Shown here in pieces: positions 60,793-64,000 of a DNA stretch of 64,000 nt (position 1 is the first letter of the stretch; every line of letters begins with the position of its first letter). Under the pieces are notes generated by a model. That model searched no databases. It was given only the letters and a program-made list of their open reading frames with translations, and was not told the DNA's origin. The position numbers and the translations under genes are program-made. This stretch comes from a virus (lineage: Duplodnaviria; Caudoviricetes): the IMG/VR virus record IMGVR_UViG_3300021255_002539, positions 96,001-160,000 of that record. One strand, 5' to 3'.

Positions 60793-61881
60793 TTAGAGAG
60801 ACATCCCCGAGAGAATGTCGTCAATCTTCGCGTTGATGTCCTCAGTGGCAACTGGGGCAGGTTCAGCCTTCTTCGCAGCCTTTGGAGCAGGTGGGGGTGG
60901 AGGAGGAAGGTCGTCAACATCCTCAGTCACATCCTTTGCGACTGGGTCAGGAGCAGGTGCTGCCTTTGGTGCAGCAACAGGCTTCGCCGCTACTGGCGCA
61001 GGGATGTCCATCGGAATGTCGTCGTTGGATACCTGGGACGAGAAGTTCTCCACATAGAACGCCTCAAGCTCCTCCTTGGTCGGGACCGTGTACCAGTTGG
61101 CGTCGAACTGCGCGTCGTCAACAAGATCGTCCGTCAAGGCATCAATGTGCTTCGGCGCAGTGGTGAAGCCAATGCGGGTGAATCCGTTCTTCTTGAAGCG
61201 GTACTCGTTTGGCTTGCCCTCGTTCTTGACCTTCTCGACCTTGCCCCAAGTGAAGAACAAGTCGCAAGCGTCGTTGTTCCAGATTGGCGTGTTGCTTCCC
61301 TGAGACGCCTGGATCTGCGCAAGCAGTGCCTGATAGCAATCCTCGTCCAGAGTCAGAACCTTGACGGCTCCGTTGTTCGCCTCGTAGTTGGGGTCGTTCA
61401 CGACATAGACCAATGCACGTGCCATGAAGGTGTTGTGCAGGGCCTTCATCTTCGCCTTCGCCTCCTGGTTCTTGAAGTGGGAGTCCGTGTATGCCTTCCA
61501 CGCAGCACCATAGGCGTTGCACATTGGGCAGTGCGCCTTGGAGAGGGTGGAGTTGGCCTTCACATAGTCCGTCTGAGGGCAGACAATCATATGCGAACGG
61601 CGCTTCGTCTTCTCTGGGTCGTCCGTTGGAACATCCTCCCACACCTGGTGGACATGCTGGATGATGAACGGGAAGTCCCTGTAGTGGGCGAAGTTGGAGG
61701 AAGCAACGAACTTCTCGTTGGGCTGCGTATTCAAAAGGCGCAGGCGATAGAACTTGCCATCCTCGGTTGGCTTCAAGAACAACTGCGTGGTGTTCTTGGA
61801 GAACTCACGGGCTTTCCTCTGAGTGAGTAGACCCGTCATGATTGAACTCGTCGGCATTCCGACATTTGTATTTAGCATCAT
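60793..61881 (-). CDS. Single-stranded DNA-binding protein, T4 gp32-like
   Basis: RLRLL, CPQT..CPMC, VYVVNDP...NNGAVK, acidic C-terminus ending IDDILSGMSL. Confidence 0.85.
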   Translation of the reverse strand: MMLNTNVGMPTSSIMTGLLTQRKAREFSKNTTQLFLKPTEDGKFYRLRLLNTQPNEKFVASSNFAHYRDFPFIIQHVHQVWEDVPTDDPEKTKRRSHMIVCPQTDYVKANSTLSKAHCPMCNAYGAAWKAYTDSHFKNQEAKAKMKALHNTFMARALVYVVNDPNYEANNGAVKVLTLDEDCYQALLAQIQASQGSNTPIWNNDACDLFFTWGKVEKVKNEGKPNEYRFKKNGFTRIGFTTAPKHIDALTDDLVDDAQFDANWYTVPTKEELEAFYVENFSSQVSNDDIPMDIPAPVAAKPVAAPKAAPAPDPVAKDVTEDVDDLPPPPPPAPKAAKKAEPAPVATEDINAKIDDILSGMSL

Positions 61882-62004
61882 TTTTTGTACCTCTTTTCTG
61901 TTTTGTTGTTTTCTGTTTTTCTTTCATCGGTTCAGTGCAAACAACCTTGCTCACATTGAACAATATTATTTACACTTTCACGATAAATAATTATACGAAT
62001 TTGC

Positions 62005-62436
62005 TCAGGAATTGTTAAGCTTTATTACCTCAATTGCGTTTTTTATGTTGTAGGAAAACTCAGACAACGATGTTATGGCCTGTGCTATCACTTCAAGCGA
62101 CAGTTCTATGTTCTTCCTCGTGGCGTCTATCTTCTTTAGGGTCTCGTCCTCCTGCGTCGCGGTCTTGAGCTTGTCAAATGCATTGTTGCCCTTGTTCTTG
62201 GAAAGCAGGTTCTTCTGATACTCGGCACGCAAGGAAACCAGCTTCTGCAATGCCTCCTTTTCCTTCGCCATGTACCCAACCCACTTGGCCTTCATGGATG
62301 ATGTAGTCAGAGACTTCTCGCGGAGGTTGGACAACGACAACTCCAAGTCCTCCTTCAACTCGTTGGAGTATTGGATTGCGGGGGATACCTTCTTGTTGTT
62401 CCTGGGTTCTATGTCTATATTGGGCAAATCTTCCAT
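62005..62436 (-). CDS. uvsY: UvsY-like recombination mediator
   Basis: EDLELS..L.EKS....KAKW helical pattern, FSYNIKNAIE C-terminus, adjacent to gp32. Confidence 0.7.
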   Translation of the reverse strand: MEDLPNIDIEPRNNKKVSPAIQYSNELKEDLELSLSNLREKSLTTSSMKAKWVGYMAKEKEALQKLVSLRAEYQKNLLSKNKGNNAFDKLKTATQEDETLKKIDATRKNIELSLEVIAQAITSLSEFSYNIKNAIEVIKLNNS

Positions 62437-62527
62437 GTTCAAATTCCTTGCTATATTATACATGTTTTGTTTTGGCCCGTAAAGATGTAAATATTATCCG
62501 ACATTTCTTGTATAATTCAAGTTGAAT

Positions 62528-64000
62528 ATGGCGCACAATGGCACAGAAAAGAAAGACAGAAGCGAGACCACAGACAAGTGCATGGTCTCCGTGTGTCTGC
62601 ATGGCGTGAAGTTGAGGGACGAAAAGAACCTGCCACTGATGGTGGATTTGGCGAAGACCTTCAACTCTGCGTCACGTTGCGCCTTCAAGCGGTTCAAGGA
62701 CATTGGGTTGAATGGAATGCTCAAGTCCCATAGGGAACCAACCAAAAGGGCATTCCAGTTCAGGGATGTACCAATGGTAAATGGCAGACCTGTGTGCTTC
62801 GACAAGCCAGTTGGAATGTCGGACGAGATGTGGTTGAACATGCGTCTGGAATCCTACAAGCGCAAGGTCAATTCGCACCAGGCAAACCCCTTCTGGCAAA
62901 TTGACAAGGATTTGGGCAGCCCGATATTGGGTACAGAGAGGATTGTTGGGGAATGGTTGGACAACAATGGCTACAAATTGGACTCCAACCTCCTACACAA
63001 CGCCATATTGGATGGACTGAAGAACTACAAGTCCTTTGAAAGGCAAGTGTCCAATTTCAAGACAGGCAAGTTCAACCCATCGTTTGGGGATATTCAGAAT
63101 AGATCAAAACGACGCATTGACCAGGACGAGTTCCAATTGACCAGAAACGCATCCTTCACTGTCGTTGGAAGCGCATCCCAAAAAGGCAACCCCAAGTTCA
63201 GGTTCAATGTAGACGACAACACATTCACCTTCACATACCAAAGAAGGAAGATCGAGTTCGACTTCTCTGCCCACCACTTCTCCAAGAACAACCTCAAGCA
63301 GGTGTCCAGAATAGTGGAGATGATGGAGTCCAGAAAACTGCCAGTGACCGTGACATTGAAGCGCATTGGCAAGGGCAACTCCTTCGAGGTGACTTTGACC
63401 TGCTCCCAATCCCAATTGTCCAGGTGCATTGGAGAGGACCAGAACTGCAAGGATAACAACATAGTGTCTGGCATTTGGGTTGGTGGAGACATCATCCACC
63501 ACAACATAGTGGACCAGACGTCAGGCAGGACATTGTACTCCAAGACATACAGAATGGATGAGTTGTCTGGGGAGAAAAGGTGCGCCAAGCAAATGGAGTC
63601 CTTGAGGTTCAATGGGGACTACAAGACCCTATCAAAGGCCAGAAAGCACCTGAACAACAGAATTTCAAACACCACCCACAATCTGCTCAAGAAGGTATTC
63701 AACATCAACAAGGCACATAATGTGGGATCTGTCGTAGTCGAGAAGCCATCGTCAATGACCAAGAGGAAGTTCAACAACTCCTTGATTGGCTTCGACAAGT
63801 ACGATGTGGAGAATGGAACAGGAGCAGCCTGCTTCATGAACCCAACCAAGTTCAACGCAATGGTGAAAAGCCATTGCGCCAGGAACATGATGGAGTTCAA
63901 GCAGGTAAATGGAGAATTCATACAGACAAAGGCTGTCCTGGAGTCAAAGACCATGGGAGAGGCAATTGGAAACGCCGGCCTCGAAATGGTATCCAGGGCA
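62528..64000 (+). CDS. TnpB/Cas12f-like protein with a substituted RuvC-I Asp, 3'-truncated by the window edge
   Basis: 491 open codons not in the ORF track; FNSASRCAFKR, FG...R.K..I...EF...R....G.A.QKGNPKF, LPVTVTLK, SGIWV (for GID), VVVE, FKQVN. Confidence 0.65.
   Translation, partial: MAHNGTEKKDRSETTDKCMVSVCLHGVKLRDEKNLPLMVDLAKTFNSASRCAFKRFKDIGLNGMLKSHREPTKRAFQFRDVPMVNGRPVCFDKPVGMSDEMWLNMRLESYKRKVNSHQANPFWQIDKDLGSPILGTERIVGEWLDNNGYKLDSNLLHNAILDGLKNYKSFERQVSNFKTGKFNPSFGDIQNRSKRRIDQDEFQLTRNASFTVVGSASQKGNPKFRFNVDDNTFTFTYQRRKIEFDFSAHHFSKNNLKQVSRIVEMMESRKLPVTVTLKRIGKGNSFEVTLTCSQSQLSRCIGEDQNCKDNNIVSGIWVGGDIIHHNIVDQTSGRTLYSKTYRMDELSGEKRCAKQMESLRFNGDYKTLSKARKHLNNRISNTTHNLLKKVFNINKAHNVGSVVVEKPSSMTKRKFNNSLIGFDKYDVENGTGAACFMNPTKFNAMVKSHCARNMMEFKQVNGEFIQTKAVLESKTMGEAIGNAGLEMVSRA

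Follow-up and report, generated by a model that had tools for sequence, protein, structure and literature searches.

A probably non-cutting TnpB/Cas12-type protein and its constrained downstream module in a lineage of jumbo phages

A single-copy gene beside uvsY and gp32

The window examined here is a 64,000-nt stretch (positions 96,001 to 160,000 of IMG/VR record IMGVR_UViG_3300021255_002539) of a 414-kb gut/rumen phage genome. A gene with a predicted TnpB/Cas12f fold, P0003, occupies 62528..64000 on the plus strand and continues beyond the window. Its frame is open from TTG 62522 or ATG 62528 up to the window end (493 and 491 codons, respectively), which recovers the 491 open codons of the original prediction. 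The parent genome completes the ORF with a TGA at G000:C1:160202-160204 (L002:2203-2205), 204 nt beyond the window end, and the translation from the ATG is 558 aa long. Features 3′ of the gene are given in the coordinates of L002, which spans G000:C1:158000-172000; a window position equals the L002 position plus 61999, and the downstream module lies just past the window end.

The divergent upstream neighbour is a uvsY-like gene (62005..62463, minus strand; PF11056, E 1.5e-6; phrog_231, E 2e-8), seen in all loci that extend far enough upstream. Beyond it lies a gene for a gp32-like single-stranded DNA-binding protein (60793..61881, minus strand; PF08804, E 8e-7) that is syntenic in relatives. 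The remaining neighbours encode a phosphoesterase, the tail sheath and proteins of unknown function. Two boxes on the plus strand precede P0003. The first, TGTAAATA at 62486..62493, belongs to a genome-wide promoter class (52 copies against 15 expected) whose members usually sit 20-50 nt ahead of an ATG; its GTAAATA is kept 5′ of the gene in 14 loci. The second, GTATAATT at 62510..62517, lies 10 nt before the ATG region and represents the class '(C)GTATAATT'; it is likewise kept in 14 loci, and CGTATAATT occurs 34 times genome-wide against 3.7 expected. The phage-type promoter motifs proposed originally thus correspond to two over-represented classes, both retained upstream of the gene. The gp32 gene carries the same promoter-box pair.

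P0003 is present once in the phage genome and has a GC content of 49%, like the genome, as opposed to 30% for a truly IS-like paralogue. Sixteen syntenic loci encode full-length ORFs with 42-94% protein identity, in the fixed order sheath ... gp32-uvsY, gene, and then an ORF-free gap of 550-1100 nt. The dN/dS of the gene is 0.15-0.22. No tnpA-like gene was found within ~6 kb on either side, in agreement with the original prediction, and signs of an IS200/IS605 mobile element (tnpA within ±6 kb, multiple copies) were absent from this single-copy, syntenically fixed gene. The gene belongs, in single copy, to the core genome of one lineage of jumbo phages from gut and rumen, which have genomes of roughly 320-430 kb and decode TAG as Gln. 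Purifying selection, fixed synteny and the lack of a transposon context bear out the proposed domestication. The placement beside uvsY-gp32 was confirmed as far as the neighbours are concerned; the adjacency probably reflects conserved gene order within one phage lineage and is not proof of functional coupling.

Fold and family

P0003 had no significant match, as a single sequence or as a profile, in Pfam, PHROGs, NCBIfam or the PDB sequences, and tblastn against 50,697 GenBank phage records returned no match. An AlphaFold model, by comparison with known structures, matches Cas12f, Cas12k, dCas12f and TnpB over nearly its full length. The best Foldseek hit in the PDB has an E value of 1.1e-8 (prob 1.00), and the top ~40 PDB matches are all Cas12f, Cas12k, dCas12f, TnpB, Fanzor or other Cas12 proteins. 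VIA-align (Z 15.0) aligned 352-363 residues across residues 17-502 of the model. Matches of the model in BFVD are viral TnpB-like proteins and transposases, and the closest named clusters in the ESM atlas carry PF27229 or are IS605 OrfB.

At the level of profiles, hhalign links the P0003 family to a clade with an intact D-E-D triad (Prob 99.6%, E 2.6e-24, 305 columns). This clade is of the zinc-finger-less PF27229 (SSO2105_N) type, carries NPxYTSQ and a weak PF07282 match, and has a member, P0080, encoded elsewhere in the same phage. The WED/REC motifs FG..RS, GN.KF and R50 are common to the P0003 family and the active clade, a sign that surfaces outside the catalytic site have been retained. 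By both its modelled WED-REC-RuvC architecture and this profile-level homology, P0003 is a member of the TnpB/Cas12 superfamily, in line with the family assignment that had been made from motifs.

The PF27229 proteins are true homologues of P0003, with which they share the WED/REC motifs, the C-terminal W...R helices and the lack of a zinc finger. However, they keep D-E-D together with a YTSQ/YSS motif, whereas the P0003 family has W or Y at the first Asp. They are about 420-500 aa long, AT-rich and found in variable IS-like contexts, and the ~60-residue insertion in REC that characterizes the P0003 family is not a feature of theirs.

A degraded RuvC site

The motifs on which the original prediction was built (FNSASRCAFKR, PVTVTLK, SGIW317V, VVVE405 and GEAIGNAGLEMVSR) were all found at the positions given. 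The W317 codon (63476..63478, plus strand) occupies the position of the RuvC-I catalytic Asp, since in the hhalign alignment GIW falls on the GID that is invariant in the D-E-D clade. Of 63 homologues, 32 have W at this position and 31 have Y, and none has D or E. The predicted replacement of the catalytic Asp by Trp is therefore real in this protein, and an aromatic residue takes its place throughout the family. The retained RuvC-II Glu was also called correctly: E405 (codon 63740..63742, plus strand) is invariant in the family and aligns with the invariant Glu of the D-E-D clade.

In the RuvC-III-like region, which the original prediction described as devoid of Asp, GEAIGNAGLEMVSR is present and P0003 has E478 (codon 63959..63961, plus strand), which MAFFT aligns with the Asp of 'PDP[IV]-A[SA]xxEI', in a register that is less certain because the hhalign alignment stops there. 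Position 478 is variable in the family (E39/D12/A5/G2/Q1/K1). In sum over the triad, the first Asp is lost, the Glu is kept and the third position varies. As in the sister clade, the TNB zinc finger is absent; P0003 has no CxxC pairs, and C435 and C450 are its only conserved Cys residues. Because the key DNA-cutting residue is lost and a strongly conserved non-coding element follows the gene, P0003 probably binds DNA without cutting it.

A constrained non-coding module downstream of the gene

The gap 3′ of P0003 is ORF-free in all loci, also under code 15. It opens with a hairpin, H0 (L002:2193-2218), that straddles the stop codon and recurs in every lineage with a lineage-specific sequence. 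Motif m1 (L002:2225-2237), the covarying hairpin H1 (L002:2241-2257), which also recurs in every lineage, and motif m2 with a TGACA-like box (L002:2307-2336) follow. Both m1 and m2 are near-invariant across the 16 loci and locus-specific in the genome. The remainder of the gap holds a short-repeat array (about L002:2445-2625), a second constrained block of nested GC-rich hairpins (about L002:2621-2761, identity 0.90-0.97) and the word AACCAAGGGGAG (L002:2877-2888), ahead of a convergent gene for a 602-aa protein (L002:2949-4757, minus strand).

The first ~130 nt of the gap, with the order hairpin, m1, covarying hairpin and m2, evolve far slower than synonymous sites. For example, in a pair with a neutral identity of ~77%, the first 120-135 nt are 95-100% identical, after which identity drops to 0.47-0.57. 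The constraint spans this whole stretch, including the lineage-specific segment between H1 and m2. Over the final ~130 nt of the P0003 coding sequence, identity at synonymous sites is also elevated (0.64-0.71 against 0.53). H1 has a covariation score of 0.344 compared with 0.117 ± 0.062, a value that one of 500 shuffles attained. On MAFFT alignments of the module RNAalifold yielded no consensus structure, because these are not structure-aware; the hairpins were instead assessed by per-sequence folds and a hand-anchored hairpin alignment.

Motif m1 resembles a class-2 promoter box and differs from the genome-wide TTTCGTATAATTG box solely in its core. On the minus strand, m2 and the TGACA box read TTGTCA-N16-TATTAT, a sigma70-like promoter present in most lineages. 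By folding energy the minus strand also comes out slightly better, which is not enough to assign the strand. Since m1 resembles a class-2 box and m2 with its TGACA box reads as sigma70-like, the module could, on its sequence, combine a terminator with promoters, or specify an antisense RNA, instead of a guide scaffold. Within the gap region, TRF reports weak 13-14-nt repeats, and the short repeat words are weakly enriched (3 per 300 nt), in arrays that evolve by tandem duplication.

Searches for guides and targets

The original prediction had pointed beyond position 64000 as the place for an omegaRNA, a guide or CRISPR repeats. No match to any of these was found there; what follows the gene is the constrained ~130-nt module. 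Rfam searches at E <= 1 over 6 kb gave no match, omegaRNA included; no tRNAs were found, and no direct-repeat or CRISPR-like array within 6 kb. k-mers from the gap have fewer matches in the phage's own genome than those of random windows (33 against 57 ± 28). An apparent excess of 13-mer matches over shuffles, which would have suggested a self-targeting guide, vanished against 400 random genomic windows, and the CTTGAACTTCAC cluster proved to be a common coding word. No syntenic cis-target emerged across 9 loci. The 3′ flanks of three D-E-D relatives were devoid of m1-, H1- or m2-like elements, and the module is thus not traceable to an ancestral omegaRNA. Sigma-factor Pfam matches were absent from 10 flanking proteins and from the annotations of 10 loci.

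Possible functions

We tentatively favour, at somewhat below even chances, the view that P0003 descends, by domestication, from a TnpB-type RNA-guided nuclease, no longer cuts and serves as an RNA-guided DNA-binding regulator. In this scheme the protein would have lost DNA cutting and retained nucleic-acid binding, and the constrained module would encode or control its partner RNA. The target of the complex would be DNA, probably of the host genome or reached via a short guide, and its binding would regulate transcription, or some other DNA transaction, in the course of infection. As neither a guide nor a target or CRISPR array was found, nor a direction of transcription, RNA-guided regulation is something that we infer. 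The fuller proposal, in which an RNA-programmed, non-cutting TnpB derivative uses a partner RNA made from the module and acts on DNA in the infection programme of the phage, appears unlikely in its entirety. Its action might, for example, switch host or phage promoters, or form an R-loop beside the uvsY/gp32 replication-recombination module.

A dead TnpB-like protein may instead act independently of any guide RNA; it might, for instance, bind DNA or RNA as an accessory to the replication/recombination module, and its gene would be followed by ordinary gene-end and regulatory DNA. This is possible, if on the improbable side. H0 would be terminator-like, m1 a variant class-2 promoter, and m2 with TGACA a minus-strand sigma70-like promoter for a short antisense or independent sRNA. 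The core-confined difference between m1 and the TTTCGTATAATTG box, the minus-strand TTGTCA-N16-TATTAT of most lineages and the slightly better folding of that strand all suit such an arrangement, as do the conserved uvsY and gp32 neighbours, the latter with the same promoter-box pair, and the searches of the phage genome and syntenic flanks that returned no guide or target matches. Nonetheless, the locus-specific m1 and m2 are conserved far beyond ordinary promoter need, the constraint covers the entire 120-135 nt beyond the boxes, H1 covaries, and all characterized WED-REC-RuvC members of this fold class use a guide RNA (PMC10705468, PMC13472631). It is quite unlikely that P0003 is still a nuclease on DNA or RNA, possibly RNA-guided, with a centre rebuilt from D320/E321, H325, E405 and possibly D515. 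The D-E pair at positions 320-321 is conserved, with an acidic residue at 321 in nearly all members; H325 is clade-specific and present in 61 of the 63 homologues, and D515, like E405, is invariant in the family. However, a bulky aromatic residue always stands where the canonical Asp would be, 9 members carry A, G, Q or K in place of the third acidic residue, and the naturally inactive Cas12k and dCas12f are among the closest structural matches.

A different role would follow if the gap were a phage replication origin with iteron-like repeats and hairpins, at which P0003 helps to form or stabilize the initiating R-loop. The T4 origin oriF is located at uvsY and works through an R-loop. The position beside uvsY, the short repeat arrays that evolve by tandem duplication and the conservation of the non-coding region in all lineages are what an origin might display, but cumulative GC or AT skew lacks an inflection at the locus and the repeat words are only weakly enriched at 3 per 300 nt, so that we regard this explanation as very unlikely. 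Finally, the loss of the catalytic Asp and the absence of tnpA would fit a decaying IS200/IS605-type tnpB pseudogene. This idea is effectively refuted: relaxed selection is rejected by the dN/dS of 0.15-0.22 and by full-length ORFs at one syntenic position in 16 loci, and the gene is single-copy with a genome-like GC of 49% against 30% for the IS-like paralogue.

Relation to known nuclease-dead systems

Nuclease-dead TnpB/Cas12 derivatives such as TldR, dCas12f-sigmaE and Cas12k are recently recognized natural RNA-guided regulators. To our knowledge, those described so far are cargo of bacteria or prophages. If P0003 is indeed RNA-programmed, it would be the first case in which an RNA-guided DNA-binding system is obligatory in a lytic-phage core genome rather than carried as prophage or bacterial cargo. 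Finding its RNA partner and target would reveal how RNA-guided DNA binding is put to use by very large phages in their own life cycle, and would add a compact, zinc-free scaffold to the toolbox of programmable DNA binders. An RNA-independent P0003, on the other hand, would be a rare reuse of the Cas12/TnpB fold without a guide.

TldR proteins are TnpB-like nuclease-dead repressors with fliC-, oppF- and csrA-associated clades (10.1101/2023.11.30.569447, PMC13622181). Like them, P0003 combines TnpB descent, a deteriorated RuvC site and a fixed new neighbourhood in place of the transposon context, the combination by which TldRs are recognized. Both P0003 and the fliC clade are phage-borne, and the constrained non-coding element lies directly downstream of P0003, where TldR gRNAs are encoded. 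Unlike TldR, P0003 comes from a zinc-finger-less, PF27229-type clade without a Pfam OrfB match. At 558 aa it is larger; its RuvC core is full and its C terminus carries a conserved helical extension, whereas TldRs are truncated at this end. It belongs to the core genome of lytic-type jumbo phages, and TldR is prophage cargo. No counterpart of the TldR gRNA, guide, TAM or promoter target was found in the phage genome or the syntenic flanks. In the P0003 family, inactivation took place independently, in another TnpB-like branch that lacks the zinc finger.

Two further natural systems resemble P0003 in structure. Cas12k of type V-K CAST (PDB 8axa, 7n3o) has an inactive RuvC and aligns to the P0003 model over 357-363 residues (Z 14.4-14.7, rmsd 5.2-5.3); unlike in Cas12k systems, no Tn7-like tnsB, tnsC or tniQ, CRISPR array or tracrRNA was detected. 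Natural dCas12f with sigma-E (PDB 9n9c, 9n9m; PMC13472631) lacks sequence similarity to P0003, which has no adjacent ECF sigma gene, CRISPR or guide array, but the two share the nuclease-dead miniature fold (VIA Z 13.2-13.9). The 'Cas12 hacker' preprint (10.1101/2025.01.20.633832) deals with an active CRISPR nuclease and not with the P0003 family.

Gene extent, neighbourhood and selection

The target gene, encoding P0003, is open from TTG 62522 or ATG 62528 on the plus strand up to the window end. In the parent virus record, which spans 414,060 bp with direct terminal repeats and contains the window as G000:C1:96001-160000, it continues for 204 nt to a TGA at L002:2203-2205 (L002 being parent positions 158000-172000), for 558 aa counted from the ATG. 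The original observation of an open frame running off the window is thus confirmed by the frame and its continuation, and all the protein motifs it quoted occur in the translation at the residues assigned to them. As also proposed, the opposite-strand upstream neighbours are uvsY (PF11056) and gp32 (PF08804); a metallophosphoesterase and then the tail sheath lie beyond them.

The order sheath(+) ... phosphoesterase-gp32-uvsY(-)/gene(+)/gap/convergent genes is common to 16 loci from different lineages, with an ORF-poor gap of 550-1100 nt after the gene, so the synteny proposed for checking in related phages is present. The 16 syntenic loci all come from a single phage lineage whose gene order is conserved, and adjacency to uvsY/gp32 is therefore not by itself evidence of functional coupling. 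The gene is domesticated rather than decaying, as first suggested, and the tests support this: dN/dS is 0.15-0.22 in seven close pairs, with no sign of the relaxed selection of a decaying IS, there is one copy in the 414-kb genome, the gene's 49% GC matches the genome's composition, and gene order is fixed.

Two boxes upstream of the gene, GTAAATA and (C)GTATAATT, are kept in 14 loci; in the window, these over-represented words lie at 62486-62493 and 62510-62517. The same pair precedes gp32 on the minus strand (window 61967-61997). Genome-wide, TGTAAATA occurs 52 times against 15 expected and CGTATAATT 34 times against 3.7 expected, both typically 20-50 nt ahead of an ATG. Both boxes are promoter-like classes that recur genome-wide.

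Family and predicted fold

Neither the target nor its 31-member family profile matched Pfam, PHROG, NCBIfam or PDB sequences, and tblastn of the target against GenBank phages returned no match. Homologous clusters number 59 (identity 42-94%), none with a Pfam domain, and many homologues sit on 200-434-kb metagenomic contigs from the rumen and human gut. An AlphaFold2 model built from the 31-sequence alignment (pLDDT 75.9) places an N-terminal strand and long helix, a helical bundle and a beta-barrel before a beta-beta-beta-alpha-beta-alpha-beta domain. For this predicted fold, the top ~40 Foldseek matches in the PDB are all Cas12f, Cas12k, dCas12f, TnpB, Fanzor or other Cas12 proteins, with whole-length alignments and a best match at E 1.1e-8 (probability 1.00). 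An independent aligner gave Z 15.0 to OsCas12f (352 aligned, rmsd 6.9), 14.7 to Cas12k (363 aligned, rmsd 5.3), 13.9 to natural dCas12f and 12.6 to ISDra2 TnpB, in each case covering model residues ~17-500. Matches in a viral structure library were phage and giant-virus TnpB-like proteins and transposases.

An exhaustive representative search recovered proteins of ~420-500 aa whose matches are weak but significant (E 5e-8 to 9e-4) and which align with the target family over their full length. These form a sister clade without a CxxC zinc finger, whose motifs (GIDxNPN, ...VE(D/x)L and NPxY(T/S)S...PDP[IV]-A[SA]xxEI) make up an intact D-E-D triad; one member is annotated with PF27229 (SSO2105_N). 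Profile-profile comparison of family and clade reached 99.6% probability (E 2.6e-24, 305 columns) and, judged from sequence, their homology is unambiguous. Nearest to the target in the ESM atlas were PF27229 clusters (the largest with 8,041 members, 59% viral) and one IS605 OrfB cluster. The TnpB/Cas12f assignment, originally made from motifs, is borne out by both the profile and the suggested AlphaFold comparison.

The same phage carries a D-E-D clade member, P0080 (454 aa), on the plus strand at G000:C1:13552-14916 of the parent record (L023:1498-2862), ~82 kb before the window start. It matches the clade at E 3e-41 and carries GIDQNPN, VVVEDL and NPCYTS-Q-IGN...TPDMV, with the triad intact, the YTSQ motif present and the zinc finger absent. 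P0080 looks IS-like because its GC content is 30% in a ~50% GC genome and it adjoins the next gene; probably it belongs to the PF27229 type of IS-like elements and is still live or was so recently. Its frame can be read through only by taking seven in-frame TAGs as sense codons, including the one for the Q of the YTSQ hallmark. None of the 19 Gln codons of the target gene is TAG, and its orthologues in related loci L019 (position 3209) and L010 (position 4048) each hold one in-frame TAG with read-through to the conserved C-terminus. This read-through independently supports TAG=Gln (code 15) in the phage clade and tempers the argument that a TAG-free gene is an early gene.

Active site

W317 aligns with the invariant RuvC-I Asp of the sister clade and E405 with its invariant RuvC-II Glu. 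All 63 homologues retrieved have W (32) or Y (31) at position 317, never an acidic residue, and E405 is invariant. Tests of the substitution's conservation thus support the proposed replacement of the catalytic Asp by Trp317 beside a retained VVVE405, and with it the loss of the canonical RuvC-I Asp throughout the family. In the RuvC-III-like region, where no Asp had been noticed, the equivalent position in the MAFFT alignment is variable and mostly Glu (E39/D12/A5/G2/Q1/K1), with Asp in 12 homologues, in a register that is less certain because the hhalign alignment ends there. Since a D-E pair at 320-321, a clade-specific H325 (61/63) and an invariant D515 are conserved, a re-wired catalytic site is conceivable and may be set against the loss of the canonical Asp.

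A more distant relative, P0065 (728 aa, 29% identity, E 3.5e-44), is a metagenomic protein of GC-rich coding style with Tyr at the RuvC-I position and long extra N- and C-terminal regions. It suggests that the dead lineage may reach beyond gut and rumen jumbo phages.

The downstream non-coding element

The gap beyond the stop codon (L002:2206-2948), all of it past the window end, contains no ORF under codes 11 and 15. Alignment of 10, then 16 loci defined a fixed module in its first part. A strong hairpin, H0, of 8-12 bp and lineage-specific sequence lies at the stop codon or immediately past it; m1, with consensus TTTCGTAATATCC, follows 10-70 nt past the stop, and a short hairpin, H1, 5-8 nt beyond m1. 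A lineage-specific spacer of 40-70 nt separates H1 from m2, ACATAATATGCC, and a TGACA-like box comes 12-14 nt later. m2 occurs once in 414 kb, and the m1 pattern three times, the other two within unrelated sequence. H1 has a covariation score of 0.344 against 0.117 +/- 0.062 in shuffles (reached by 1/500); its inner pair varies as GC4/CG2/UA2/AU1 with no unpaired cells, and slid controls gave at most 0.14.

L002 and L009, a related phage locus, differ by a dS of 0.277, which implies a neutral identity of about 0.77. Over the opening 120-135 nt of the gap their identity is 95-100%, after which it falls to 0.47-0.57. A second block ~420-560 nt downstream, of nested GC-rich hairpins (L002:2621-2761; 18 bp in three tiers, no U-tract on either strand), is 0.90-0.97 identical and evolves more slowly than synonymous sites; analogous long hairpins in other lineages read GGATGTT...AACATCC or GGGGG...CCCCC. 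Synonymous-site identity in the last ~130 nt of the coding sequence is 0.64-0.71 versus 0.53 overall. Between the two constrained blocks lies a short-word array rich in GGA triplets, AT(A/G)TTG(G/T/A)A(G/A)A with GATGGGAA (L002:2445-2625), which in some lineages is organised as 13-30-nt tandem repeats (13, 29 and 30 nt at L007:7920-8220). The array could represent iterons, protein-binding sites or a sponge-like RNA body. Further on come a conserved AACCAAGGGGAG (L002:2877-2888) with a T/A-rich stretch behind it and, in several lineages, GGGGAG(T/G)GGG with a T-run (L002:2925-2948) just before the stop of a convergent 602-aa gene on the minus strand (L002:2949-4757) without Pfam or PHROG match. 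Genes of 576-623 aa occupy this position in L003, L005 and L006, but not in L007, L008 and L009.

By analogy, a structured, constrained block of ~130 nt with hypervariable sequence behind it is the pattern expected of an omegaRNA-type scaffold and guide, and the element sits at the place from which the guide RNAs of TnpB and TldR are encoded (10.1101/2023.11.30.569447). Several features count against such a scaffold or do not decide the matter: m1 nearly duplicates the class-2 promoter box of the phage, in most lineages m2 and the TGACA box give TTGTCA-N16-TATTAT when read on the minus strand, the folding energies of the two strands are asymmetric without assigning a strand, and the 3' flanks of three D-E-D relatives have no similar element. 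Gap k-mers match the phage genome 33 times, fewer than random windows (57 +/- 28), and none of nine loci contains a syntenic cis-target. An apparent cluster of guide-like matches in the phage genome proved to be a common coding word. Inspection past position 64000, proposed in search of a guide RNA or CRISPR repeats, thus uncovered a constrained structured module, but no CRISPR-like array, Rfam match, tRNA or guide complementarity. A replication origin in the gap is not supported compositionally, since cumulative skew shows no inflection at the locus. That the target protein acts as an RNA-guided regulator, the original guess, is plausible, at a little under an even chance.

Relation to known systems

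The closest systems by mechanism are TldRs, associated with fliC, oppF and csrA (PMC13622181), natural dCas12f, which works with sigmaE (PMC13472631), and Cas12k. No description of the target family was found in the literature on TldR/TnpB in phages, dCas12f, jumbo-phage TnpB and SSO2105. Like TldRs, the family is TnpB-descended, has lost its active site and transposon context, and has a constrained non-coding element downstream. Unlike TldRs, it has no guide or target found in the phage genome or the nine syntenic loci, and it comes from another branch, zinc-finger-less and invisible to Pfam. It also differs in having a full-length RuvC core with a conserved C-terminal helical extension, DPSMLDW..HLLHNKRxRQAR, and in its place among the core genes of very large phages of lytic type.
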